A DNA stretch of 64,000 nt from Oscillospiraceae bacterium (GTDB lineage: Bacteria; Bacillota; Clostridia; Oscillospirales; JAVBNY01): NCBI GenBank assembly GCA_031551205.1, contig JAVBNY010000010.1:6113-70112 (forward strand). The letters run 5' to 3'. The translations under genes were made by a program, and so were the position numbers. The notes under the pieces were generated by a model that searched no databases, was not told where the DNA came from, and worked only from the letters and a program-made list of their open reading frames with translations. Position 1 is the stretch's first letter. Each line of letters starts with the position of its first letter. This document shows, one piece after another, positions 1 to 55,408 of this stretch.

Positions 1-2680
1 CCTGACCGCCAAGTTCACCTATGGCGGCGCTTCTGCCAGTCGGACATTTGTCATTACGGTCTGGTCTCGGTCCGCGGCGGCTGAAGAGGCCAGCGGTAAC
101 GAGGCATATCTGCAAAACGCCGCGGCTTCGTTAGGCAGTTTTTACAAGCTGACACCTATTTACGGCACCGATAACAATGTCATTGATATGCTCTTGGCGA
201 ACCTTCTCGCGAAAGGCTATGGCGACATCTCCGTGGCGGTAACAACTGCCACCAAGGTATATGGCAACTGCGGTATTTCCTCAAACGGCGATATCACCTA
301 TTTCTACGCCGACCCCAATGGAACGCGTGGCGTCTGGTTTGGCCGTTATGACGTGACCTTTACCCTGAGCAAGGACGGCGCAAGTTGCGAGCTGCCCGCC
401 GTACCCGTCACCATCCATTGGGATGCGGACGCGGCAAAGCGGGTCATGAGCGACGAAATCCTCAGCGGCGTGAATGAGTCCGCTATTCTGGGGAACAACG
501 AAAGTCTAAACAGCGTCACCTCAGATTTGAACCTTCCCAAGATAGTGGACAGCAAGAAGTGGACGCTGGTTTCCTGGACCTCCTCCGACTCCGGCACGGT
601 CTTTATCAGCAACGAAAACCAGGGTACAGCCGACACTTTGTTTAACCCCTATGTGTGCAAGGTAATTCGCGGGGCTGTGGATAAGAAGGTCACCCTCACC
701 GCCGCCTTTACCTTCCGGCGCACCAGCTCCGAACCCGCCATTGTCCTGTACAAGGTCTTTACCGTCACGGTCAAAGCTCTGAGCGGCGCGGAGGCTGACG
801 CCGCCCGGGCGGCACTGCTGGAAAAGCTGGAAGCCGGTTTTTCCGCCAAAGGGCTGCGCGACTGTATAACCGGAGCTCCCCTCAGCCAAAACGGCGATGT
901 ATACCTTGCGGCCAATGACATTCAGTTCCCAACCACCCGGGACTTTGGCGTGGACGGAAAAAACTACCCCATTACCATTACCAGCAGCAATGAGGATGTA
1001 ATCGTTGCCCCCGATGTGGCCAACGCAGCCCGGGTCAGCGTCTATCGGCCGCTCGCGGGCCGTTCGGCCGAAACGGTTATCCTGACCGTGACAATTACAG
1101 ATAAAGAAAAGGGTATCTCCGCCTCCAAGGATTTTACCGTTGAGGTACAGCCCCTGACCCAAGGTGAAATCGATAGCGCGCTGGCCTTGATGACCTTGAC
1201 CAAAGATAGCTACTTTGACGGCTTGAACAAGGGACGCTATACGGACGCTTTTTCAGTAACAGGTGGTCTTTCCTCTTTCAACGAAGCGGTCTGGAATGAC
1301 AGCGCAACCGCCGTTAAATGGATTTATTCAAGCACCGAGATGACCGGGAACAGTATTATCGCCGATGAGCTTCCAGGCTGGGCAGAGCAGGAGGCCTGGC
1401 GGGCCTTCCGCTCCAGCAACCCCAAAATACTGGACCATGAAACTTTGAATCTCCCGGCAAAGCCCAATGAGGACACCTTCGTTGGCGTAAGCAGCGTGTT
1501 GACCCATGAGATTTTCGGAAAGTACTGGGAGCGGTTCGCCGGGGAACCCGGGTACGAGGCTTTTGAAACGCTCTATAAGCAGCCGGTTTCGGCCTATGTG
1601 ATGGTGGTTGGGAAAACACATCAGGAGCTGCCCCAAGAAGCTTTAATGGGCTTGCGCACTTTGGCGGTGGCCAGAATTAACGCCCCGATATCGGTAAGCT
1701 TTGTGTTAAAGGGGCCTGACGGAACCTTGATTGATACCCCCGTCTCGGGGCTCAGCTCGGGCGCTACGGTTTTTGAAGTGTTCCGTCAGGTGCTTGACCA
1801 GTGGGGTTACACCTATTCCGCAAAGGGCAGCTATGTGCAATCTGTTACAGACACCAACGGGATTACACTGGCAGAGCAAGACAGCGGCCCCAATTCCGGG
1901 TGGATTTATCGGGTAAACGGCGCTCTGCCCGGCGTGTACATGAATGGATTTTCTTTGGAAGACGGCGACGAGGTCATTGTAACTTTCACAAAAGATTACA
2001 CAAAGGAAGCGGGGCTTAACCCCGGAGGTTCAGGGGACGGGGGTTCGCCGTCGGGTACAGCACCTTCCGAGCCTGTCCCGGATACCGGCGTACCTCTTGC
2101 CGGGATACCCTTTGCCGATGTGGCCGAATCCGACTGGTTTTACGAGGATGTGGGCTTTGTATGTGAAAAGGGACTTTTTAACGGCACGAGCGCCGCAACT
2201 TTTGCGCCAAACTTATCTATGACCAGAGCCATGCTGGTAACGGTGCTGAATCGCATGGGGATAAATAACCATGATACTTATGGCGTGGAGGCCGAGCATC
2301 CCCGCAATTTTAACGATGTGCCTGCCGGAACCTGGTATACCGACGCAGTCCGCTGGGCGGGCGGAGCGGGGATTGTAAACGGCATTGGGGAAGGCAAGTT
2401 CGGACCGGAGCTTTCCGTTACCCGGCAAGACTTGGCCGTTATGCTCTGCCGTTATGCGGAGGCTATCGGGTTTGAGCTGCCGAAAACACGGGATACGGCG
2501 GCATTTGCCGACAACGTCCAAATTTCCGGCTACTCAAAAGATGCCGTTACCGCGCTATATCGGGCAGGCATTATCAACGGAAAAAGCAATAATATTTTTG
2601 ACCCAACCGGAACAGTGACACGGGCCGAGGTGGCGGCCATGCTGCATCGGTTTATGGAAGTGGTAGAAAAAGCAAGTTAA
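1..2680 (+). CDS. Large cell-surface protein with Ig-like repeats, DUF4430-like domain and three C-terminal SLH domains (5' end outside window)
   Basis: The frame is open from position 2 to the stop at 2680. It contains GPNSGWIYRVNG (DUF4430-like) and SLH motifs FADV..WFY, TRAMLVTVL, TRQDLAVML and TRAEVAAML. Confidence 0.85.
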   Translation, partial: LTAKFTYGGASASRTFVITVWSRSAAAEEASGNEAYLQNAAASLGSFYKLTPIYGTDNNVIDMLLANLLAKGYGDISVAVTTATKVYGNCGISSNGDITYFYADPNGTRGVWFGRYDVTFTLSKDGASCELPAVPVTIHWDADAAKRVMSDEILSGVNESAILGNNESLNSVTSDLNLPKIVDSKKWTLVSWTSSDSGTVFISNENQGTADTLFNPYVCKVIRGAVDKKVTLTAAFTFRRTSSEPAIVLYKVFTVTVKALSGAEADAARAALLEKLEAGFSAKGLRDCITGAPLSQNGDVYLAANDIQFPTTRDFGVDGKNYPITITSSNEDVIVAPDVANAARVSVYRPLAGRSAETVILTVTITDKEKGISASKDFTVEVQPLTQGEIDSALALMTLTKDSYFDGLNKGRYTDAFSVTGGLSSFNEAVWNDSATAVKWIYSSTEMTGNSIIADELPGWAEQEAWRAFRSSNPKILDHETLNLPAKPNEDTFVGVSSVLTHEIFGKYWERFAGEPGYEAFETLYKQPVSAYVMVVGKTHQELPQEALMGLRTLAVARINAPISVSFVLKGPDGTLIDTPVSGLSSGATVFEVFRQVLDQWGYTYSAKGSYVQSVTDTNGITLAEQDSGPNSGWIYRVNGALPGVYMNGFSLEDGDEVIVTFTKDYTKEAGLNPGGSGDGGSPSGTAPSEPVPDTGVPLAGIPFADVAESDWFYEDVGFVCEKGLFNGTSAATFAPNLSMTRAMLVTVLNRMGINNHDTYGVEAEHPRNFNDVPAGTWYTDAVRWAGGAGIVNGIGEGKFGPELSVTRQDLAVMLCRYAEAIGFELPKTRDTAAFADNVQISGYSKDAVTALYRAGIINGKSNNIFDPTGTVTRAEVAAMLHRFMEVVEKAS

Positions 2681-2684
2681 TAAT

Positions 2685-2718
2685 GAAGGGCGCAGGATGT
2701 AAGTCCAGCGCCCTTTTT
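2685..2718 (+). terminator. Intrinsic terminator
   Basis: AAGGGCGC.GGA/TCC.GCGCCCTT stem followed by a T-run, just after the SLH gene stop. Confidence 0.75.
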
Positions 2719-2776
2719 ATAGAAGACTGAGCCTCGCTTTGGGTGTAGCCATAGCTGCATTCTGTTATTTTTAATA

Positions 2777-3610
2777 TCACTTCAATGCCTTCACGGGACA
2801 TGACCTCACGCATTCATAGCACAAAATACACTCCGTCCCATTTTCTCTGCTGCGGCGGTTATCAAGCATATCGACATTCATCGGGCAACCCTTTTTACAT
2901 TTGCCGCACGAAATACAAGTCTCGTGGCTGACTTTGATTCGCATGAGTGAAAAGTAGCTGATAGGTTTTAGGAATATTGTGATAGGACAGATATACTTAC
3001 AAAATGCCCGGTTATCCTTGAACGCATAAGCGAGCGCAATGCCAACCGCATAATAAAGGATATTCCCCACAATAAAGCTGATAAAAACAAGGTCTTCCAA
3101 GTTGGATGGGCGCAGGATAAACAGGGTTAAGGTGTACAGCAGAGACAGCAGAAAGATGGCGAGTCTAAGCATTCCCAGTTTTTTACGGCGCGGCGCGGCG
3201 GGTATTTTATACGGCAGCAAATCAAGCACCATCGCAGTCCAGCAAGCATAACCGCACCAGCCGCGCCCAAACAGCAGAGGTCCGGCAATCTTAGCTACAA
3301 GATAATGAATGACAGCGGCTTGGAAAACACCTAAAAAGAGATAATACCAAAAGCCTTCTATCTGCATGTTTTCACGGCAGATAATCCCAAGATAAACCAG
3401 CATATATAAACCAACCGCGAACTGAACGGCCATTCTCGCGTGGCGAAAGCCGGAGAAATATAAAGACACGCCGATGGCAATCGCCGTTCCGATATATGTA
3501 AAGTTGAGCAGATAAAACAGGTTATCGAGTGAAAGCCATAAAATGACGGCTACAGCCTCAAAAGCGAGCCACAACAAGAACGGTATTCTATATTTCTTTA
3601 TGTTTTTCAC
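2777..3610 (-). CDS. Membrane polyferredoxin (4Fe-4S binding, NapH/YccM-like)
   Basis: Several TM helices, GRGWCGYAC, FCKYICP and two CxxCxxCxxxCP motifs. Confidence 0.85.
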   Translation of the reverse strand: MKNIKKYRIPFLLWLAFEAVAVILWLSLDNLFYLLNFTYIGTAIAIGVSLYFSGFRHARMAVQFAVGLYMLVYLGIICRENMQIEGFWYYLFLGVFQAAVIHYLVAKIAGPLLFGRGWCGYACWTAMVLDLLPYKIPAAPRRKKLGMLRLAIFLLSLLYTLTLFILRPSNLEDLVFISFIVGNILYYAVGIALAYAFKDNRAFCKYICPITIFLKPISYFSLMRIKVSHETCISCGKCKKGCPMNVDMLDNRRSRENGTECILCYECVRSCPVKALK

Positions 3611-3700
3611 CTCAAATCAATCTTATTGGGCAACCGCTAACTGCTCTGCAATAGCCATAATATACAGATTTCCACTTGGACCCACAAAGCGTTCCTGTAC

Positions 3701-3860
3701 TTATTCGTCCCCCGCATCCATTTGTTCGATTTTTTTGCGGTGTGGTTTGCTCGCCTTCAGGGCGGGCTTTTTTACGGGTTCTGAAGGTTTCTTCCCCGGA
3801 ACATATTCAATCAAATCGGCAACCGTGCAGTCCATTGCCAATACTGCTCGGCGCAAAGCA
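3701..3860 (-). pseudogene. C-terminal remnant of a Cro/C1 HTH protein
   Basis: Manual translation gives ..AVLAMDCTVADLIEYVPGKK.., a typical XRE C-terminal tail with no N-terminal helices. Confidence 0.4.
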
Positions 3861-3862
3861 TT

Positions 3863-4069
3863 TCAAACCTTTTCACCGGTGTCATTCATCACAAAGCTTA
3901 TGTCAAGGGTACAGTTCAAAGCCTCAGCAATTTCCCTGAGCTCACTTTCGCTAAAATTGTCACGTCGCAACTTATTGCTCAGGTTTTGTGAAGTACATTT
4001 CAATTTTTCTGAAAGTTCTTTGAGACTAATCTTACGCTTTACGAGTAGAATTTTTATTTTTTCAGTCAT
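3863..4069 (-). CDS. XRE-family HTH repressor
   Basis: ISLKELSEKLKCTSQNLSNKLRRDNFSESELREIAEAL; RBS GAGGTG precedes ATG 4069. Confidence 0.85.
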   Translation of the reverse strand: MTEKIKILLVKRKISLKELSEKLKCTSQNLSNKLRRDNFSESELREIAEALNCTLDISFVMNDTGEKV

Positions 4070-4091
4070 TAAGGACACCTCGCTTTGCTAC

Positions 4092-4187
4092 ATTGTAACT
4101 CTTTGGTGTAGATACGTCAAAAGGTTTTAATAAATAAACCCGAAAGTGAAAAAAGAAATTGACAAATGTAACCCATTGGTGTATAAT
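4092..4187. promoter_or_regulatory. Divergent sigma-A promoters, each with an operator copy over the spacer
   Basis: Minus strand TTGACG-17-TACAAT (4120-4092); plus strand TTGACA-17-TATAAT (4159-4187). Repeat copies TGTAACTCTTTGGTGTA (4094) and TGTAACCCATTGGTGTA (4167). Confidence 0.8.
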
Positions 4188-4240
4188 GAAATCGTAGGGT
4201 TAATTGATATCACATAACTTTTCAAAAGGAGGTGACCCCC

Positions 4241-4549
4241 ATGCCCACGCCAACACCCTACATCGATGCCCTGTTTATGGGCGAGCTCAGGCCGTTCGAG
4301 CGCCTGGAGCCTGCGTTTCCGGAATACAATGAGCTTTGTGAGTTCTCCGCCGCGATGGAGGGCCTGTTTGCCGAGCGGCTCACGCCGGAGTTAAGAGGCT
4401 TTTTCCAGGATGTAGTCGAGAACCGCAGTGAAATCGCCGGGATGCTCGTCCGTCAGGCCTTTGCCGACGGTTACCGCCTGGGCGTTAACCTGATGCTGGA
4501 ATCGCTCGGCCAATTTGCCCTCGACGAAGGCCGGGAAGTCCGGTTTTGA
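4241..4549 (+). CDS. DUF6809-like small protein
   Basis: LFMGELRPFE..EY..L...AFADGYRLGVNLMLE pattern; AGGAGG RBS. Confidence 0.65.
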   Translation: MPTPTPYIDALFMGELRPFERLEPAFPEYNELCEFSAAMEGLFAERLTPELRGFFQDVVENRSEIAGMLVRQAFADGYRLGVNLMLESLGQFALDEGREVRF

Positions 4550-4589
4550 CCATAATATCGCTGCCTAATAAATGAAAGGAGACATATTT

Positions 4590-5279
4590 ATGAATACAAA
4601 CAGCCTGAGCCTGTTGCGCGACCTGCGTCTGCGAGAAGGCCTTACCCAAGCCGACCTCGCCCGGGAGCTGAGATTGACAGAAAACGACATTTCCAGAATG
4701 GAAGGCACCGGCAACCCGACACTTGAAAAATATGAAGCCGCTGCCAACCGCTTCGGCATCCCATGCGACACACTCATCCGCAACGACTTTCCAACCGCCT
4801 ACGCAGTCCTTTTCATCCCCATGGAGGAGGAGCGTGATTGTCTCGATAGTCACATGCGGCGCATGAAGGCGCACAAAAAGGCCGGAAATGAGGGCGAACG
4901 CTGGGTTTACGAATGGGAGCGGCAAAAACTGGCCGGTACCAAGTATTACAGGATGGTGGACCTCAGTCCCTCAGAGAACATCAAAGCTGGGTATGATATC
5001 CGCAGTTGTGACCCTGATGGAGTGCCAATTTTTATCGAGGTAAAGACCACAGCCGACGAAATGGAAAAAGAGTTCTATATGTCATCGTTTGAACGGAGAA
5101 AGGCAATCGAGTTCCTCGAAAAGGGTCTCCGGTATGAGGTTCACCGTGTATTCCATCTTAATGACCCCAAGCGGCGTGGCCGCGAGATTATCACCGGTGA
5201 GGCGCTGCTGGGCGGCGACTTCATCTTTACCCCGAAGGACTATATTGTTTCGCGGAAGGAGGACATTTCTTATGACTAA
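4590..5279 (+). CDS. XRE-HTH fused to DUF3883 (NOV C-terminal) PD-(D/E)XK nuclease domain
   Basis: N-terminal LTQADLARELRLTENDISRME; C-terminal GNEGERWVYEWE..GYDIRS..IFIEVKTT..FYMS..E. Confidence 0.75.
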   Translation: MNTNSLSLLRDLRLREGLTQADLARELRLTENDISRMEGTGNPTLEKYEAAANRFGIPCDTLIRNDFPTAYAVLFIPMEEERDCLDSHMRRMKAHKKAGNEGERWVYEWERQKLAGTKYYRMVDLSPSENIKAGYDIRSCDPDGVPIFIEVKTTADEMEKEFYMSSFERRKAIEFLEKGLRYEVHRVFHLNDPKRRGREIITGEALLGGDFIFTPKDYIVSRKEDISYD

Positions 5280-5733
5280 GCTGGAACGCTGGCGCATTGA
5301 AGCAGGGCTCTCACAGCGGGAATTGGCTGCCCGCGCCGGTGTCGGCGTCTCAACTATTGGTTGTCTGGAGCGGGGAGACTGCAAAACCCGGACGCCGTCG
5401 CTATTAAAACTCAGCAATGCCACCGGGCTGCCCATCATGAGTCTGGCCAAAAAGGCGGAAGGCCTCAATCCCATCCGTAAACACCCCTATCGCTCCAAGA
5501 CCGAGAACCCCGAAAGCCCCATAACCTGCTACAAAAACGCACAGTCCATCACCTTTGAGGAACTGGCGCGGTGGCTGGGCAATACAACTCGCGAGAGCGG
5601 CCGCCAGGCCTGCGCGGCCATGCCCGCCAAAGCCGTGCACATCAAGGCGCTGGCCGCTTTTGAGGGTATCGGCGTTGAGGCCTACCTCCGGCAGTACGGC
5701 ACAGAGAACGGAGGACTTGAAAATGCTTCTTGA
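5272..5733 (+). CDS. XRE-family HTH protein
   Basis: GLSQRELAARAGVGVSTIGCLERG; overlaps the upstream stop (translational coupling). Confidence 0.75.
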   Translation: MTKLERWRIEAGLSQRELAARAGVGVSTIGCLERGDCKTRTPSLLKLSNATGLPIMSLAKKAEGLNPIRKHPYRSKTENPESPITCYKNAQSITFEELARWLGNTTRESGRQACAAMPAKAVHIKALAAFEGIGVEAYLRQYGTENGGLENAS

Positions 5734-6061
5734 GGTCTTTGTTCCGGAAGAGGGACGCTCATACAACGGCGGCACTTACCGGGCATACATTGCTCGGATT
5801 ACCGGCAGAGACGAGCGGTTTGACTTCAAACGACAGTTTCTCCGGCCGGTTTTGAAGGAGGGTGACCGGGTTTATGATATCGTGGCCGATGGGATTTATG
5901 AGGAGAGCGTTAAGTGCTTCGAGCAAGGAACCGGCCGCTTTCGCTGCCGCAACCGTGAGTTCTTTGTTTTTCATGGTGAAGAATACTATGTGATTTCCCC
6001 CAGTGAGGTGCTGGAATACGTGGACTGCCCGGAGGCTGCTGCGCTCCGGTATCCGGCTTGA
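5723..6061 (+). CDS. Hypothetical protein (112 aa)
   Basis: GGAGG RBS; coupled to the upstream gene; YRAYIARITGRDERFDFKRQFL. Confidence 0.65.
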   Translation: MLLEVFVPEEGRSYNGGTYRAYIARITGRDERFDFKRQFLRPVLKEGDRVYDIVADGIYEESVKCFEQGTGRFRCRNREFFVFHGEEYYVISPSEVLEYVDCPEAAALRYPA

Positions 6062-6075
6062 CGGGAGATGTGAAT

Positions 6076-6216
6076 ATGAGCAACAACAAGCACCCGCATC
6101 GAACGACTCAAGAACGGCTGGAAGCCTTTTATGGAAAGCCGCTCTATGAAATTGAGCCTATAGATGTCGAGGAAATCGCTGGAGCGCACCGAAAGACGAA
6201 AAAAGTAAAACCATGA
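6076..6216 (+). CDS. Small ORF resembling the C-terminal tail of AbrB/MazE-type antitoxins
   Basis: MSNNKHPHRTTQERLEAFYGKPLYEIEPIDVEEIAG..; GGGAG RBS; ATGA overlap with the next gene. Confidence 0.45.
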   Translation: MSNNKHPHRTTQERLEAFYGKPLYEIEPIDVEEIAGAHRKTKKVKP

Positions 6217-6395
6217 CCCAGATTAACTTTGTTTCGGTGGAGACTATCGCGGTGGATGATGCGCTGCTGGAAAAGGCGAAGGGAGTCTTCGCCGAAAACA
6301 ACCTGACTATCACGCAGGGCATTGAAATCTATCTTCGGTTTATAGACATGCATGGAAAGCTTCCCTTCGGGGTATTGCCCACGCCGGAGGGCTGA
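6213..6395 (+). CDS. RelB/DinJ-like antitoxin (RHH)
   Basis: VDDALLEKAKGVFAENNLTITQGIEIYLRFIDMHGKLPF matches the RelB/DinJ pattern. Confidence 0.65.
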   Translation: MTQINFVSVETIAVDDALLEKAKGVFAENNLTITQGIEIYLRFIDMHGKLPFGVLPTPEG

Positions 6396-6440
6396 GATGG
6401 AAAGACCCCGCCGGAAGATGTGAAGGAATAATGACAAGCG

Positions 6441-6466
6441 AGCCCGCTGCGATAAGCAGCGGGCTT
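6441..6466. terminator. Hairpin terminator after the accessory operon
   Basis: AGCCCGCTGC-GATAA-GCAGCGGGCT perfect stem. Confidence 0.55.
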
Positions 6467-6812
6467 AAATTTATAGAAAATATTTTTCAGTCCGTGTTGC
6501 CCAAAAAGAAGAGCCGGCGCGAAGCGTCGGCCCGCTCCCGAGCGGCGAAAATATGCAAAATTTCACGTAAAAGACTGCGAAGCACTTTGCCGCTCGAAAA
6601 AGGCCTGGAGGCCTTGTGCCGCAGGGCCTCGTCCGTTTATAACTTTGACCGCAGGTCAAATTATAAATGTACGCGACCGCGGCCGTTATCAATGGGCGGC
6701 AGGCATGCCGCCGACCTTTTTAAGCACCCGCTTAAGCTCCGGATTTATACCACATTTCGCTATAAAAGTAAAGCAAGTATGGTATAATGAAATAAAAAAG
6801 TTTTAAATTGGC

Positions 6813-6841
6813 TTGCGTTCGGAAAATATTTGTGGTACAAT
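6813..6841 (+). promoter_or_regulatory. Sigma-A promoter upstream of the structured leader
   Basis: TTGCGT-17-TACAAT with extended TG; a second TGnTATAAT lies at 6780-6788. Confidence 0.6.
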
Positions 6842-6889
6842 AAAGGCACCATAAAGAAGTATTTTTTAATTATATATAGATAAATATTA

Positions 6890-7800
6890 TGATGAGACAG
6901 GGCTACCCGCGAGGGGAACCTTGTCTTTTTTTATTTTCAAACCTTATACTCAATGGAGTTACTTTACCTTTGCCTGCGTCGCAACAAACCGCGCCTACCC
7001 TTGTGCAGGTACGCCAACGTTGAGATGGAGACAATTTTGGATGGGTGCAGAGTCGCCCAAGCCTTACGCTGATGTCTGGTCGCGCATAGCTGCGACTTGA
7101 TTCCAGCAAGGTAACCATTTTTACTAAGGCACGCTGTTATTCCGCCGTCGCAAAGCCGGGGGTGGGATGGCAATGGGTGGACGGATAGCAAGGCCCAACC
7201 CGTTTCATCATAGCATCGAAGGAGCTTATAACGAAGCCGGTCACCCGTTATGGGCCGCACCAAAAGGCGCGGCTGGTGATGAACTGTCTGGCATCTAACG
7301 ATGCGGCATGTACCCACATTGCCGCGGATAGAGAGAATCTGACTTGGACCGGGCGCATAGCCGCCCGTGTCACTGGTGTTTGCTTTGCAAAGTCAGGCTA
7401 ACGCCGTCCGGCCGCTGGAACCCCGCAAAACAGCGTCTACAGGTCGGATACAGGTCATTCCAACCGAGCATTTGCCGTTGGTTGCGTCAATCTGTTCCTA
7501 TGTCTTTTTTAGGTTTGTATTGGCTATCTGACAGCAAGTACAAAAGAGGAATGCCTCCCACCACACGGGTGGGGAAAGAGAAGGGTCTGGTACCACGGCG
7601 CATAGCCGCCGTGACACCGACCAAGGCCCGCGGCACACCGTTCGCATTTGGCAACGGTGTGCTGCCCGGGCAAAGGAGGAGCATGACCCGGCATTCGGCT
7701 GGGAGTATGCTCCTCCTTTGCGTTCCCAGCGACCAAAATCCTCGCAAGAGGTGGGTAAGAACCGAGTGAAAGAAATCGGTCTGGACTCAACACGTCCCCA
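6890..7800 (+). ncRNA. Candidate large structured ncRNA or leader (unknown family)
   Basis: No credible ORF; many stems with G-U pairs and GNRA loops on the + strand; three hairpins with an identical CATAGC loop. Confidence 0.55.
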
Positions 7801-7829
7801 ATAATTACAAAAATCAGGAGGGTTCAACC

Positions 7830-8897
7830 ATGAACCGCATTAAATACGCCAGCACCGAAGAACGCCAGCGTGTTACCAAGCTGGCACGCGGCATCAGCAA
7901 ATCTCTTCATGAGCTCAACGCTACTGGAACATCTAAGCGCGAAGCCCGCGCCGAGCATAACGCGAAGCTTCAGGCCAAGGCGATTGCCGAAGGCCGCGAC
8001 CCTAAAAAGCTTCGCTATGATGCTTCGCCGGGCATCCACAGTTTTGGCACAATGGACGGATACTGCAAGGACTGTGAGCGCGCCCTGCGTTGGGTGACCA
8101 AACGTCATCCCGAGGTTACAACCATACGCTTTGCTTACAAAAAGGGCTATCTTCGTGAGTACATTCAAGATTGCATCGACCGCGGGTTGGCTGCGCACAC
8201 AATTGACAAGTACGCCTGCGCCCTTGCGAAGCTGCTCCGGGTACACTCCTGGGAAATTCATGACAACAAGCCAAGGCGCGACTACCGCAAGTACACCCGC
8301 TCCCGTGGGTACAGCGAAGCGCGTTTCGAGCAGGACCGTTCCAAGTATTCGTCCAAATACGGGCCTATTATCGACCTCATGCGCTGTACCGGGGTTCGGA
8401 GAGAAACCTTTGAGACTTTGTACCCTGAGTCCTTTGTGGAGGGGCCGGGCGGCAAGCTTTATCTCCCTGTGGACGGCAAGAAGATTAAAACCAAGGGCGG
8501 TCGGCCCGGGCTCATCGAAATCATAGATGAGAATCAAGTTAAGCTTCGCGAGCTCTTGGCGTTGTTCCCCAAGGGGCAGCTCATCTGCCCCAAAGTCCCG
8601 AACCAAATCGACGAGCACGGGATTCGGTCGCTTTACGCGGAAGACTTTTATTTCGCAATCGCCCGGCCCATAGACAGCATCCCCCTGAACGAGCGTATCC
8701 CCCTCAAAAACCCCAAATTTGACAATCGTCCGGGCAGGAAGCCCCGCACATCCGTCCCCGGGATTTATCATCGCAAGGACGGCCGCCTCTTTGACAGGAA
8801 GGCGCTCCTTCGCATTTCAAAGTCGCTGATCCACGAGCGAGATGACGTGGTGGCTCAAAATTACCTCTGGCGTAGCGAGCCGCTGAGAAAGCGGTAA
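7830..8897 (+). CDS. Tyrosine recombinase-like protein (Integrase_1-like)
   Basis: Catalytic set R (TGVRR), K (TKGGR), HxxR (EHGIR), H (LIHER), Y (QNYL); AGGAGG RBS. Confidence 0.8.
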   Translation: MNRIKYASTEERQRVTKLARGISKSLHELNATGTSKREARAEHNAKLQAKAIAEGRDPKKLRYDASPGIHSFGTMDGYCKDCERALRWVTKRHPEVTTIRFAYKKGYLREYIQDCIDRGLAAHTIDKYACALAKLLRVHSWEIHDNKPRRDYRKYTRSRGYSEARFEQDRSKYSSKYGPIIDLMRCTGVRRETFETLYPESFVEGPGGKLYLPVDGKKIKTKGGRPGLIEIIDENQVKLRELLALFPKGQLICPKVPNQIDEHGIRSLYAEDFYFAIARPIDSIPLNERIPLKNPKFDNRPGRKPRTSVPGIYHRKDGRLFDRKALLRISKSLIHERDDVVAQNYLWRSEPLRKR

Positions 8898-8968
8898 TTT
8901 GCAATCAAACGCGGTTCATAACGGACAACCCGGGTGCCATATCTTAATATCAGAAGGGAGTGGGAAAA

Positions 8969-9223
8969 GTGCTGAATAAAAAAGACCTCGAAGTCATGAG
9001 CGGCTTCGATATCACCGCGCTTGACCCCTCCCGTCTGGTGGATATCACCGAGGTGAAGATTGACCCCGGCGCACCCGATGCCGACAGGCTGGACGATTTT
9101 TTAAAGCAGATAGAAAATCCCTATTGCTACCGTGTAAACAATACCCCTGTCAAGATACGGTTTGGTCAGGGGAAGCCATATCTTGACCAGGTTTTAGAGG
9201 ACTATTTTACCCAAAACAAGTAG
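8969..9223 (+). CDS. DUF6870-like protein (usually precedes large serine recombinases)
   Basis: LVDITEVKID..RLDDFLKQIENPYCYRV..VKIRF pattern. Confidence 0.7.
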   Translation: MLNKKDLEVMSGFDITALDPSRLVDITEVKIDPGAPDADRLDDFLKQIENPYCYRVNNTPVKIRFGQGKPYLDQVLEDYFTQNK

Positions 9224-9289
9224 CTTCTTTGCCCCTGCTCTGTTATAATGAGATTGTGATTATAAGGGGCAACGAAAGGAGATTTTGCA

Positions 9290-10975
9290 ATGCCCCGGAT
9301 ACGAAAAAACCGAAATATTGAACATCGGCAAACCTTGTTCTGGTCGGTCTGTCTTTACATCCGTTTATCCCGCGAGGACAATAACGACGATGAAAGCGAG
9401 AGCGTCATCAATCAGGAAAAAATCCTCCGTGATTTCATCGAGAGCCATTTTGAGCTCGGTACCTACGAAATTGTCGAGGTCTTCGCTGACGACGGACGCA
9501 CCGGCACCGACACGAACCGCCCCGAGTTTCAGCGCATGAAGGAAGCTATTATAGACAAAAAGGTCAACTGTGTGGTTATGAAGTCTCTGTCCAGAGGCTT
9601 TCGCAACCTCGGCGACCAGCAGAAGTTCCTTGAGGAGTTTATCCCCTTGCACGGCATTCGCTTTGTCAACATGAGCTCCCCATTCATCGACACCTACAAC
9701 GACCCGCGCTCGGCAACCGGCCTTGAGATTCCCATAAGGGGAATGTTCAACGAACAGCACGCCGCCACCACCTCCGAAGAGGTCCGCAAAACCTTTCGGA
9801 TGAAGCGTGAGCGGGGTGAGTTCATCGGCGCGTTTGCTCCCTATGGCTACAAAAAATCGTCCGACAACAAAAATGATTTGGTTGTAGACGATGAAGCGGC
9901 GCAGGTGGTGCGCGACATCTTTTACTGGTTTATAAGCGATGGGATGAGCAAGAGGGGCATCGCCCAGAAGCTCAATGAACAGGGCGTTCCAAACCCCAGT
10001 GAGTACAAGCAAAGGCACAGCCTGAACTATCAGAACCCCAATTCTGATAAAAACGACGGTCTTTGGAGCGCCAACACAGTTTCCCGCATTTTGCAAAACC
10101 CTGTGTATATCGGGAACATGATACAGGGCCGCTACCGCGTTATTTCCTATAAGGTGCACAAGCAGATTCGAACGGCTGAAGATGAGTGGTTTGTCGTGGA
10201 AAACACCCACGAAGCCATTATCGACAAGGGCACGTTTGACAAGGCGCAATCGCTCCATCAGCTGGATACCCGGGTCGCTAACGGCAAGCAGGAGGTTCAT
10301 TTATTCAGTGGTCTTATCCGTTGTGCCGACTGCGGAAAGGCCATGCACCGCAAGACCTCCCGGAATATTGTCTACTATTTCTGCCGTTCCTTTGTCGACA
10401 AAAAGGTTTGCAGCAAGCATTCTATCCGTCTTGATGAACTGGAAAACGCTGTGTTGGTCTCCATTCAAAAGCAGGTTGAGCTTGCCGGGTCGCTGGAAAA
10501 AGTCATCGAGCGGATAAACAATGCTCCCAATCAGCACCGGGAGTCCATGCGGCTGACCCATGCGCTAAGCGATGCGGAAAAACAGCTGGCCAAATACAGC
10601 AATGCCGCAGACGGCCTGTATATGGATTGGAAATCGGGCGATATTACCCAGCAGGAGTACCACCGCTTGAAAGGCAAGTACACGGGACAGATTACCCAAT
10701 TGGAGAACACAATCAGGCGGATACGAGAAGACATGCAGGTGATGGCTCATGGTATTGATACCGAAAACACCTACTTTACCGCTTTTCTCAAGCACAGAAA
10801 CATACAAAGCCTGAATCGCGGAATCCTTACCGACCTTATCGACACAGTTTGGATTTACGAGGGCGGCGAAGTGATGATTGATTTTAACTTTGCCGACCAG
10901 TATCAGCAGATTGTTGATTACATCGAGAATAACCGCAACAACCTTGTGTTAGTAGAGAATAAGGCCGCTGTGTAG
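9290..10975 (+). CDS. Large serine recombinase (resolvase, recombinase, Zn ribbon, coiled-coil/DUF4368)
   Basis: YIRLSRED, DDGRTG, RPEFQRM, KSLSRGFR, APYGY, SGLIRCADCG. Confidence 0.92.
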   Translation: MPRIRKNRNIEHRQTLFWSVCLYIRLSREDNNDDESESVINQEKILRDFIESHFELGTYEIVEVFADDGRTGTDTNRPEFQRMKEAIIDKKVNCVVMKSLSRGFRNLGDQQKFLEEFIPLHGIRFVNMSSPFIDTYNDPRSATGLEIPIRGMFNEQHAATTSEEVRKTFRMKRERGEFIGAFAPYGYKKSSDNKNDLVVDDEAAQVVRDIFYWFISDGMSKRGIAQKLNEQGVPNPSEYKQRHSLNYQNPNSDKNDGLWSANTVSRILQNPVYIGNMIQGRYRVISYKVHKQIRTAEDEWFVVENTHEAIIDKGTFDKAQSLHQLDTRVANGKQEVHLFSGLIRCADCGKAMHRKTSRNIVYYFCRSFVDKKVCSKHSIRLDELENAVLVSIQKQVELAGSLEKVIERINNAPNQHRESMRLTHALSDAEKQLAKYSNAADGLYMDWKSGDITQQEYHRLKGKYTGQITQLENTIRRIREDMQVMAHGIDTENTYFTAFLKHRNIQSLNRGILTDLIDTVWIYEGGEVMIDFNFADQYQQIVDYIENNRNNLVLVENKAAV

Positions 10976-11023
10976 CAAATGGCGCGGTTCTCTGCTTTCC
11001 TTTCATCAATGTGTTGTGTGTAA

Positions 11024-11728
11024 ATAGACGGCGCCACCGGCCCACAGGGGCCGCAGGGCACTCAGGGGCCGATAGGCCCAATCGGAGCGACCGGAGCAAC
11101 CGGGGCAACAGGCGCGCAAGGGCTTCAGGGCATTCAGGGCCCTATAGGCCCAATCGGAGCGACCGGGGCAACCGGTGCGCAGGGCCTTCAAGGCATTCAG
11201 GGGCCCCAGGGGCCGCAGGGACTTGCCGGCGTGCAAGGCCCACAAGGGCCGCAAGGGCCGCAAGGTGTTGCCGGCCCGCAGGGGCCACAGGGTATTCAGG
11301 GGCCGCTCTCAACAAATGATTACGCCATCGCGGAGAGCAACACGCCTCAGAGCGTGGTGTCCGGCGGGCTGATAGAGATATCAAACCAGTCTTATCTTTC
11401 GACGGCCTCCTTTGCGGACACCTCGCCCACCGTCATCACCATACTGGCCTCCGGTACCTACAGGATCGATTATAAGATCATGGCCGAGGGTCAGCGAGAC
11501 GCCGCCATCTATCTGAACGGTGTTTTGTTATCCACAAGCCACCACTTCAACGCACTCTCCGGCGCGCTTATTGGGACTGCGATAGCGGTAATCCCGGCGG
11601 GGCAGACGCCCTCCGCCCTGACGCTCAGGAACACAAGCGCCCTGCCGATGAACATTCCGATCTACGCCGGGAGCATTATTCCGGGCACCCCTTCCAACGT
11701 CTACGTCGTGATCACAAAATACGCCTGA
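11024..11728 (+). pseudogene. 3' part of a BclA-like collagen-repeat (exosporium-type) gene lacking its start
   Basis: Gly-X-Y repeats start at ~11030 directly after an in-frame TAA (11021), with no RBS or ATG; BclA_C-like beta domain (GTYRIDY). Confidence 0.75.
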
Positions 11729-52644: not shown

Positions 52645-52735
52645 ACCGTTTCCGAGAAAGGCAAAGCTGCTGAAAGGCAGTGACGCAAAACTAGAGGGCC
52701 TTACCCATATGGGTTGGTAGCCAGTTGCCGAAGAA
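52645..52735 (+). ncRNA. c-di-GMP-I (GEMM) riboswitch
   Basis: GGCAAA..GAAA..GACGCAAAAC..GCCAGTTGCCG; promoter TTGACA..TATAAT at 52599-52626; terminator at ~52750-52782. Confidence 0.88.
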
Positions 52736-52842
52736 GTTTTTGCAGGATGCCTCTTTTTTGGTAATAAAAAAAGAGGTTTTTTCGCGTTCTTTGGCAGATT
52801 GTTGAGGGCTTGCCCCTGAATTATCTGAAAGGAATGAAAGCC

Positions 52843-53751
52843 ATGAAGAGGCTGATCTCCATGGTTGCGCTTATTGCGCTGGTCTTCTCTGTATCCATCC
52901 TGGATTTCACCCAGGTTAGCGCCGCGGGCAGCGAATCTGCAGCGGACGAAGCACAGGTTATTTACAAGGGAACCAAATCGCAGATTGACGCAACAAACAG
53001 CAATGACGCCTATCTCAGCATTAAACTGCTTGAGAAAAGCGCCAAGAAGTACAAGGTCACAATTGAGAAGAGCGGAGTCAAATATACATACGACTTGAGA
53101 AGCGACGGAACCGCCGACATTTACTCCCTGCAAATGGGTAACGGAAAATACACCGTGAAGGTTCTTGAGAACGTTTCCGGCACAAAATACTCCGTCGTTC
53201 AGACTCAGGACATTGAGGTAAAGTACTCAAACCCCAACGCGCCGTTCCTCGCATCAACGCAAAATGTTAGCTTCAACGCGAAATCAAAAGCAGTGGCAAA
53301 AGCGGCCGAGCTTTGCAAATCGGCCAAGACAACGCTTGAGAAGGTCGAGAAGATCTACGGATATGTAGTATCGAACGTCACTTATGACACCGAAAAAGCC
53401 AAAAAGGCCATAGACGGCCAGCTCAGCGGATACATCCCGGATGTGGATGTCATCCTCACCAGCAATAAGGGCATCTGTTTTGATTATTCCTCTCTGATGG
53501 CGGCAATGCTCCGCTCTCAGAATATTCCCACCAAACTCGTGATGGGTTACGTCGCCCCCGACAATGTTTATCATGCCTGGAACGAAGTCTTTATCGACGG
53601 GATGGGCTGGATAAAAATTCAGAGCAGCGTCTACTTTGACGGCAAGAACTGGTCAAGGATGGATTCAACGTTTGCTGCCGGGAACAAAGGGGGTGGGAAG
53701 ACGAAATTCATCGGAGACGGCTCGAACTATTCTAAGAAGTACGAGTACTGA
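52843..53751 (+). CDS. Secreted transglutaminase-like protein
   Basis: Signal peptide; GICFDYS, YHAWNEV and MD catalytic triad. Confidence 0.85.
   Translation: MKRLISMVALIALVFSVSILDFTQVSAAGSESAADEAQVIYKGTKSQIDATNSNDAYLSIKLLEKSAKKYKVTIEKSGVKYTYDLRSDGTADIYSLQMGNGKYTVKVLENVSGTKYSVVQTQDIEVKYSNPNAPFLASTQNVSFNAKSKAVAKAAELCKSAKTTLEKVEKIYGYVVSNVTYDTEKAKKAIDGQLSGYIPDVDVILTSNKGICFDYSSLMAAMLRSQNIPTKLVMGYVAPDNVYHAWNEVFIDGMGWIKIQSSVYFDGKNWSRMDSTFAAGNKGGGKTKFIGDGSNYSKKYEY

Positions 53752-55332: not shown

Positions 55333-55408
<76 letters not shown>

Follow-up and report, generated by a model that had tools for sequence, protein, structure and literature searches.

The 64,000-nucleotide (nt) stretch of Oscillospiraceae DNA analyzed here (contig JAVBNY010000010.1, positions 6,113 to 70,112; hereafter the window) carries a small integrated element of ~7 kb in which the gene for a 355-amino acid (aa) protein of the tyrosine-recombinase fold is preceded by a 982-nt, strongly folded non-coding leader. 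A long gene-poor upstream region is a trait of this enzyme family and its conserved partner, and some relatives, at least, produce it as RNA. We therefore favor, with confidence somewhat short of even, the interpretation that the region is a mobilization or other DNA-processing module in which the enzyme is preceded by a long structured RNA, whereby the role of the RNA and the activity of the enzyme are what we infer from this arrangement.

A folded leader without convincing ORFs precedes the recombinase-like gene

The structured non-coding leader (6848–7829, + strand) extends from a promoter-like site to the ATG at 7830 and contains no convincing open reading frame (ORF). Its longest ORFs encode 141 aa (7344–7769, + strand, TTG start), 117 aa and 109 aa, the latter two on the − strand, and we estimate that ORFs of such length are expected by chance at 55–60% G + C. 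The 141-aa ORF had no Pfam match, and tblastx of 6396–7829 against the loci of all relatives yielded nothing below E 0.088. These data bear out the original prediction, which was made from the sequence alone and described ~980 nt without a credible ORF. A scan against the 4227 families of Rfam 15, which the same prediction had called for, produced no match at the gathering score in the leader and none there even at E ≤ 10; the best row within 6500–8000 was a 21-nt hairpin outside the leader (E 0.56). Thus, none of the ROOL, GOLLD, OLE, HEARO, group II intron, ribozyme and riboswitch models matched the leader, the Pistol covariance model was absent from the window, and a known Rfam family does not account for the leader. 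A Shine-Dalgarno sequence, AGGAGGG, can be read at 7816–7822 (+ strand), 7 nt before the ATG.

Compared to dinucleotide-preserving shuffles (20 per strand), the leader, with a minimum free energy (MFE) of −385.6 kcal/mol, folds with a z of −8.35 on the + strand versus −5.43 on the − strand. In 200-nt windows (40 shuffles), z on the + strand reached −3.7 at 7300–7499 and about −5 at 7500–7799, and ranged from −1.1 to +1.4 in the coding part, 8000–8899. Fold excess was also evident at 6400–6799 (z −3.5 to −5.1), upstream of the start of the region originally described. The observation of a folded leader is thus real and beyond chance. The stems named in the original prediction are present: the 15-bp perfect stem (7670–7684/7707–7721) and the hairpin at 7630–7665 (7630–7642/7653–7665; 13 nt, 92%) were verified, and the GGCAATG/CATTGCC pairing extends to 14 nt at 79% (7169–7182/7310–7323). 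The proposed excess of G-U wobbles favoring the + strand was borne out as well, with 40 of 313 MFE pairs on this strand versus 28 of 305 on the other, but the bias is modest. By contrast, GNRA loops, which had been singled out as a notable feature, are few in the MFE structure and their enrichment was dropped for this reason.

Repeat counts and stem searches also revealed three + strand hairpins with the identical loop CAUAGC, at 7079–7096, 7350–7367 (6-bp stem) and 7594–7613 (7-bp stem). They contain the 9-mer GCGCATAGC (at 7082, 7353 and 7598), which occurs four times in the window versus 0.89 expected. A small hairpin, GGAC-UCAACAC-GUCC, lies close to the gene (7783–7797, + strand); its loop resembles, without matching the strict form, the UCAACAG / UUUAACUG motif found before many family genes. 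The pattern T[TC]AAC[AT]G was present within 250 nt upstream of the gene on the sense strand of 32 of 76 loci, whereas the opposite strand contained it in 2 of 76.

The long upstream region is a trait of the enzyme family

To describe the upstream region across the family we used 55 non-duplicate loci with at least 1000 nt of upstream sequence (8 duplicates and shorter loci were dropped). In 42 of the 55 loci, 700 nt or more separate the gene from the closest upstream ORF of 120 aa or longer; the median of this distance is 934 nt. Elsewhere in these loci, neighboring ORFs of that size are separated by a median of 229 nt, and 27 of 187 such gaps reach 700 nt or more. The loci with short distances, the window among them, reflect chance ORFs inside G + C-rich leaders. 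The original prediction had allowed that nothing might be conserved upstream of homologs. Instead, the long gene-poor stretch is kept and the finding therefore survives, in the sense that gene-poor length is conserved family-wide, while primary-sequence conservation with the window was nil by blastn; upstream regions are alike only within subgroups.

Two further observations deserve mention in this context. In the relative L051, ~5 kb upstream of the gene (927–6133) holds no ORF of at least 90 aa on either strand. In 27 termite-gut-type metagenome loci, the 25-mer GGGCAGATGTAAAAAGCTCGTGCTT (at most 5 changes) is located 75–390 nt before the gene (e.g., L030, 5951–5975); it is far better conserved than the termite-type proteins and may be a DNA or RNA site recognized by a protein.

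Relatives carry sense-strand RNA motifs upstream of the gene

The Rfam scan of relatives, which covered 74 loci, identified two RNA classes, both in the sense orientation. Pistol ribozymes with an intact conserved core were found in two loci, at 4349–4421 in L105, a Flavonifractor plasmid (61.8 bits), and at 866–941 in L101 (53.4 bits; gathering score 34.5), about 480–620 nt before the gene. In both, the ribozyme lies ~110 nt behind a TTGACA promoter and is followed by a conserved sequence of ~400 nt. Because Pistol needs a 2′-OH, the sense strand must be made as RNA in at least these two loci. Just before the promoter, both loci also contain a 15-9-15 inverted repeat (ACGGTTTACCCGTT...AACGGGTAAACCGT), which is related to a palindrome of the termite-type loci. 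The second class, Mahella-1 RNA (RF03007), was present in 8 of the 74 loci, always 412–485 nt before the start codon; four loci (L037, L038, L056 and L057) contain one copy and four (L032, L039, L044 and L065) contain two, the second being 2.4–3.7 kb further downstream. We searched for a second recombinase-like gene behind these downstream copies and found none. In L032 a terminator hairpin follows each copy (3931–4042 and 6365–6479), and the second precedes an unrelated 92-aa ORF. Thus, at least part of the family has an upstream region that is RNA.

We next considered conserved pairing. In an Agathobaculum-type subgroup (13 sequences with proteins 33–35% identical to that of the window), RNAalifold of the last 280 nt predicted 45 pairs, with 97.4% of cells paired. 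Twelve pairs changed on both sides, versus 6.2 ± 1.5 in shuffles and 1–6 with slid partners, the structure having been derived from the same 13 sequences that were used for the counting. G-U pairs occupied 77 of 583 cells; these would be A-C on the other strand and so fit only the sense strand. For 20 termite-type sequences RNAalifold returned one invariant hairpin and no covariation, a poor result that is due to a poor MAFFT alignment; compensatory stems seen by eye in this subgroup were not counted as evidence. The by-eye matches UUAUCCCMGC and CAACAGCA across subgroups are leads only, as a search with the model of the Agathobaculum-type 3′ domain (R1) did not support them.

The window shares a 3′ domain with its closest relatives. 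A model (R2) was built from the 3′ domain, 117 nt long, of L028, L016 and L002, the three relative loci closest to the window, the proteins of which are ~44% identical to that of the window. The best R2 match in the whole window, on both strands and with filters off, was 7667–7792 on the + strand, at full model length (25.5 bits, E 1.6e-4), with the next match at 16.0 bits. This domain is composed of the hairpin with the 15-bp stem, a UCCCA joiner, a variable hairpin and a hairpin with a GAAA-rich loop. R2 also matches L003 at the corresponding position (22.7 bits, E 0.0025), and there is a weak match in L029. Of the 28 pairs that can be aligned between the window and L028, 25 are retained, including 10 in which both sides have changed, in an alignment that was fitted to the R2 model. 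The match carries weight because its position falls exactly where homology predicts, and by this model match the 3′ domain of the window is common to its closest relatives.

Expression of the leader

RNA evidence came from one metatranscriptome run of the same study as the likely source sample. An identical 377-nt RNA-library contig, to which no strand could be assigned, covers 7250–7626 at a depth of 6.6, a hint at the presence of RNA from the middle of the leader. Other identical contigs cover 8029–8288 (depth 2.1) and 9278–10935 (depth 10.1). No contig fell on 4000–7249 or 7627–8028, which is not evidence of absence.

The 355-aa protein belongs to a discrete tyrosine-recombinase-like family

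The protein encoded at 7830–8897 (+ strand) had been described as an intact tyrosine recombinase. The fold class and catalytic residues uphold this description, but standard profiles barely detect the protein: in Pfam it showed only a sub-threshold match to the SAM-like PF02899 (E 0.01), it was not matched by the Phage_integrase profile PF00589, which is precomputed on a few distant relatives, and NCBIfam and PHROGs gave nothing. We found 166 homologs and aligned 24 with 38–49% identity. In these R190, K222, H263, R266, H335 and Y345, the full catalytic R-K-H-R-H/W-Y set, are invariant. The AlphaFold model (mean predicted local distance difference test score, pLDDT, of 90.6) has a two-domain fold, core-binding plus catalytic. 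Foldseek matches were weak (E about 1e-3, TM 0.24–0.43), and the PDB rows listed were XerA, XerH, Cre, lambda Int, Tn1549 Int and Brujita Int only. The family also has a conserved, basic N-terminal extension of two helices with an invariant G33..K36.

A profile search of 1.84 billion representatives returned 372 matches at E ≤ 1e-30 and 1674 at E ≤ 1e-3. The small number of matches even at the looser threshold indicates that the family is discrete and stands well apart from ordinary integrases. It is also rare, being found in 9 of 401 genomes sampled in the window's order, its own included. A family-level search of the window's taxonomic family identified only its own genome, and a scan of genome contigs with the single protein confirmed no relative. 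We consider the protein a candidate MOB_M-like relaxase or site-specific recombinase.

Integrase and plasmid contexts argue against an integrase role

Downstream of the 355-aa gene the element encodes a DUF6870 protein (8960–9223, + strand) and, 393 nt from the gene, a large serine recombinase (9290–10975, + strand), likely the element's integrase, both identified by Pfam. Upstream, helix-turn-helix (HTH), NOV_C and DUF6809 genes are located behind a promoter at 4160–4188, a consensus TTGACA-17-TATAAT for the + strand genes of the element; a short HTH repressor-like gene (about 3640–4070, − strand) can be read from the sequence opposite this promoter. We searched 3.6 kb downstream of the family gene with two integrase queries in 43 non-duplicate loci with at least 1500 nt of downstream sequence. 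A serine recombinase was present in 13, window included, and a tyrosine integrase in 2, one with an AlpA-like gene between.

Plasmid tblastn uncovered 16 records with family members, all typed as non-mobilizable, and no recognized relaxase was found on these plasmid relatives. No match came from Clostridium perfringens or Klebsiella. The plasmids are 3.5–21.8 kb in size and include the 3.65-kb Caldicellulosiruptor pATHE02/pBAS2, 3.9–8.3-kb Streptococcus suis plasmids and the 21.8-kb Flavonifractor plasmid. In the three records examined (pATHE02, one S. suis and Flavonifractor), an unannotated gap of 0.66–0.87 kb precedes the gene in each, and pATHE02 and the S. suis plasmid harbor their own Rep (Rep_trans or RepL types). 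Pfam on the neighbors of L032, L105 and pATHE02 was uninformative. That one enzyme is common to integrated elements with unrelated integrases and to small plasmids argues against an integrase role. Thus, the 355-aa enzyme is probably not the integrase of the element, in line with the earlier suggestion that it has another role (15 of 43 loci are beside integrases, and others are on small plasmids with their own Rep), and the context fits a mobilization or other DNA-processing function.

Candidate promoters and a terminator-like hairpin at the 5′ edge

The promoter originally proposed at 6813–6841 (+ strand) is readable from the sequence as TTGCGT-17-TACAAT with a TG before the −10, but a consensus promoter scan did not list it and listed 6921–6950 instead. 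Just upstream, an extended −10 candidate, TGGTATAAT, can be read at 6780–6788 (+ strand); the same 12-mer, GTATAATGAAAT, is found at this site and at the element's first promoter, at 4181. About 50–90 nt after the promoter is a terminator-like hairpin (6894–6937, + strand), with an outer stem of ~9 bp and an inner CCC-GCGA-GGG, followed by U7AU4. This promoter-then-hairpin layout recurs in L028 and in the plasmid pATHE02, and promoters, that of the window being a candidate, border the folded region on its 5′ side in the window as well as in L028, L105, L101 and pATHE02.

The adjoining gene-free part, 6396–6812 (+ strand), contains inverted repeats (6441–6465, 6539–6596 and 6625–6678) and a terminator-like hairpin at 6695–6712. 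We regard it as a candidate DNA site, either an origin of transfer (oriT) or an operator, together with the end of the upstream operon.

Comparison with known systems

The closest analogue that we could identify, by its layout, is the mobilization module of Salmonella genomic island 1 (SGI1; oriT, sgm-sRNA and MpsA/MpsB). In SGI1, the sigma-70 promoter P5 is followed 66 nt downstream by a terminator-like repeat that yields an abundant 70–80 nt RNA, a 650–700 nt primary RNA extends towards mpsA, and the 3′ part of this primary RNA, between oriT and mpsA, is essential for transfer and unlike a classical sRNA in its action; MpsA is a tyrosine-recombinase-like relaxase (PMC9299015). Both systems thus place a tyrosine-recombinase-like enzyme in an integrated mobilizable element with a separate integrase, and both have the same order, in one direction, of promoter, terminator-like repeat, long non-coding stretch and enzyme gene, the window being known by its sequence layout. 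No sequence relation was seen, and the comparison rests on this layout. In addition, the window comes from a Gram-positive gut anaerobe, its element has a serine recombinase as integrase, its leader exceeds that of SGI1 in both length and strength of folding, and no MpsB-like second protein is evident in the window.

The relaxases TcpM and MobK share with the family a tyrosine-recombinase fold that is missed by the usual relaxase or integrase profiles, and are similarly found on small plasmids or beside integrases, as the 355-aa gene is found near the serine recombinase in the window. In MobK of pIGRK, the passages covered place oriT in a non-coding 456-bp region with inverted and direct repeats directly upstream of the gene and show that the catalytic Tyr is needed (PMC8152469). 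A recent preprint reports that chromosomes commonly encode MOB_M relaxases, that standard profiles fail to detect them and that 96% have an integrase nearby (bioRxiv 10.64898/2026.01.13.699239). Compared to these systems, the gene here follows an upstream region two to three times as long, which in relatives includes RNA motifs; the passages covered report no RNA for TcpM or MobK. A true family member is Cbes2777 of C. bescii pBAS2/pATHE02 (28% identical in tblastn across 88% of the query length, E 2e-22). Like the gene in the window, it has a long unannotated upstream region, of 840 nt, with a TTGACA promoter and then a terminator-like hairpin, but it is encoded on a plasmid and its upstream region also contains seven GTTAGC repeats. 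In our locus for pATHE02 (L103) these repeats, the promoter and the hairpin immediately after it fall within 283–1124, and a hairpin loop, UUCAACAG, is located about 100 nt before the gene.

The mobile elements IS110 and IS1111, too, encode a structured non-coding RNA in their non-coding end, immediately before the recombinase gene. The enzymes of these elements are DEDD/serine-type and not tyrosine recombinases. Unlike the leader of the window, bridge RNAs and seekRNAs are about 150–200 nt long, with loops complementary to target and donor. No such complementarity emerged in a 12-mer test: between 6396–7829 and the rest of the window, on either strand, there were 24 exact 12-mers versus about 11 expected, many of them overlapping, and none was shared with the ends of the element, as far as exact 12-mers, as opposed to shorter or split guides, and ends that are not mapped allow. 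The proposal of an RNA guide therefore found no support in the form of guide-like complementarity to the ends or flanks. In size, structure density and residence in Firmicutes mobile elements the leader resembles the ornate RNAs ROOL, GOLLD, OLE, HEARO and raiA, but it matches none of the Rfam families. No Xer/cer-type core site (inverted arms with a 6–9 bp spacer) was recognized in the window; elsewhere in the family, L105 and L101 contain the 15-9-15 repeat described above, to which the termite-type palindrome is related.

Literature searches, which did not extend to supplements, found no long structured RNA tied to the family and no RNA-dependent tyrosine recombinase. They retrieved nothing on Mahella-1, its context in supplements being outside their scope, and nothing relevant on Pistol with an integrase context. 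An association of this family with large structured RNAs, among them a ribozyme and an orphan Rfam motif, thus appears to be undescribed.

Possible functions of the module

In the mobilization or DNA-processing interpretation, the region would be a module, most likely for mobilization, of a ~7-kb element that integrates via its own large serine recombinase, and the 355-aa protein would be a divergent relaxase-like or site-specific DNA-cutting enzyme separate from that integrase, with the 1.0–1.4 kb upstream stretch as its fixed partner. Putative promoters at about 6780–6841 would start a long, highly folded RNA, and the terminator-like hairpin at 6894–6937 may limit read-through by attenuation. 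The RNA that reads through is predicted to fold into several domains, ending with the conserved 7667–7792 just before the ribosome-binding site. Such an RNA would set the level of the enzyme and, by analogy with the sgm-sRNA of SGI1, may also be needed for its reaction, which may involve the inverted repeats of 6396–6812 as a candidate DNA site.

Several observations weigh against this interpretation. The leader gave no blastn match to any fetched relative or to plasmids and phages. R1 found nothing in the window or in other subgroups, producing only two 8.8-bit chance rows against 66 sources, the window included, and RNA homology across subgroups is therefore not established. The R2 match is weak and must be considered modest, since a whole-genome search did not return it at E ≤ 0.1, and the pairing count for L028 was taken from a fitted alignment. 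The RNA-library contigs show no strand, ends or continuous transcript and could be DNA carry-over, and the strong terminator-like hairpin directly behind the promoter may let little RNA through into the leader. The enzyme has no specific similarity to a proven relaxase: in an hhalign comparison of the family profile with TcpM of pCW3, the only one compared, E was 0.068 over 91 columns of the catalytic region only. In the context survey, 28 of the 43 evaluable loci have no integrase detectable by the two queries, and many relatives adjoin restriction and CRISPR genes, their neighbors including restriction-modification, GmrSD, Cas3 and TnpB. Cbes2777 of pBAS2 was described as a Xer-like multimer resolvase required for maintenance, the support given in the sections covered being only the failed transformation by truncated plasmids (PMC5779722, PMC3643907). 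Finally, covariation alone cannot separate folded single-stranded DNA (ssDNA) from RNA (PMC5737381).

A somewhat unlikely alternative is that the leader is purely cis-acting and controls read-through or translation of an ordinary recombinase, such as a Xer-like resolvase or an invertase, with no role in the DNA reaction. Control would then be exerted by the hairpins at 6894–6937 and 7670–7721 and by structures beside the ribosome-binding site. Terminator-like hairpins in the leader, and the U7 that follows the equivalent long hairpin of L003, are consistent with this, as are the Mahella-1 RNA and terminator that in L032 precede both the recombinase-like gene and the unrelated 92-aa ORF. The catalytic set is that of a true recombinase and complete, the pBAS2 member is annotated as Xer-like, and the 15-9-15 repeat upstream of the promoter in L105 and L101 is lox/FRT-shaped. 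However, known attenuators need far less than one kb, the self-cleaving ribozyme of relatives suggests that a discrete RNA product is released, and a resolvase would be of little use to an element that is integrated and encodes an integrase of its own. It is quite unlikely that the conserved folds act instead as ssDNA, forming a transfer origin and/or a single-strand origin (sso) on the transferred or displaced + strand that is bound by the enzyme or by RNA polymerase, with transcription incidental. Known oriT and sso elements are 100–300 nt in length and not 1 kb. In addition, the 2′-OH requirement of Pistol makes the sense strand of L105 and L101 RNA, the promoters are placed at the 5′ edge of the folded region, and RNA-library reads cover 7250–7626. 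Nevertheless, strand-specific folds with pairs that are G-T-compatible agree with ssDNA no less than with RNA (PMC5737381), the family is found on small plasmids with Rep_trans or RepL, the known tyrosine-recombinase-like relaxases have, in the passages covered, oriT just upstream of the gene, and the very high conservation of the 25-mer in 27 termite-type loci is typical of a DNA site recognized by a protein. Both readings of the original prediction, an RNA partner or guide and an ssDNA origin used by a TcpM-, MpsA- or MobK-type relaxase, are kept, although neither is demonstrated and a nick site or an origin could not be pinpointed.

An RNA-guided or RNA-scaffolded tyrosine recombinase, in which the RNA supplies part of the DNA-site recognition as bridge and seek RNAs do, would fit the constant placement of a structured RNA gene, in sense, immediately before the genes of a discrete recombinase family. 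Cleavage by the ribozyme in relatives would define a 5′ end, the three identical CAUAGC loops could be protein-binding sites, and the family has the conserved, basic two-helix extension with its invariant G33..K36. We consider this specific mechanism very unlikely, given that complementarity of the leader to the element's ends or flanks did not exceed chance, that a shared scaffold would be expected and yet the RNA is conserved neither in sequence nor in detectable structure between subgroups, and that no such tyrosine-recombinase system was found in the literature searches. A broader proposal, which is unlikely, is that the enzyme family works as a ribonucleoprotein with its own large, fast-evolving upstream RNA, trimmed by Pistol in some members and carrying Mahella-1 in others, and that the RNA is a required cofactor of nicking or recombination, at which the sgm-sRNA of SGI1 hints, or even supplies site recognition. 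At the other extreme, the leader might be decayed coding sequence or a neutral spacer, its fold excess a by-product of composition and local palindromes. The 141-aa ORF and the lack of blastn relatives of the leader would be compatible with such an origin, but this ORF has no Pfam match and no tblastx conservation, the fold excess holds against dinucleotide-preserving shuffles, the long upstream region is kept in a family that diverges to 25–30% protein identity, and the 3′ domain is common to relatives, all of which makes decay or neutrality extremely improbable.

If the ribonucleoprotein proposal were true, this would be the first class of RNA-dependent tyrosine recombinases or relaxases, spread over integrated mobilizable elements and small plasmids of gut Firmicutes. 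Tyrosine-recombinase-like relaxases, recently reported to be common in chromosomes, are almost unstudied, and MpsA of SGI1 needs an RNA of unknown mode of action. Since the family offers many natural variants of one layout, a comparative and biochemical study of the RNA-enzyme link is possible. Such a link would place the orphan Mahella-1 and some Pistol ribozymes in a genomic context, and so offer a testable role for them; it could also explain the movement of small “non-mobilizable” plasmids and of defence-carrying islands of gut anaerobes. Were the RNA merely a regulatory leader, it would still represent a new class of large cis-regulatory RNA tied to the control of mobile elements.

Other features of the window and of related loci

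TnpB (IS605 OrfB) genes are located beside Agathobaculum-type upstream regions in L007 (2743–3903) and L012 (3342–4490, − strand), and L004 contains a group II intron (697–1382, − strand). Elsewhere in the window, a c-di-GMP-I riboswitch (52650–52732, 71.6 bits) precedes an ORF at 52810–53751, and a tRNA gene is found at 55333–55405. Just to the right of the element is a collagen/BclA-like gene (11011–11728), which is very abundant in the RNA run, at a depth of about 240–320; in the DNA run, a variant of this gene lacks 128 nt (11069/11198) and has 20 different letters between the two positions.

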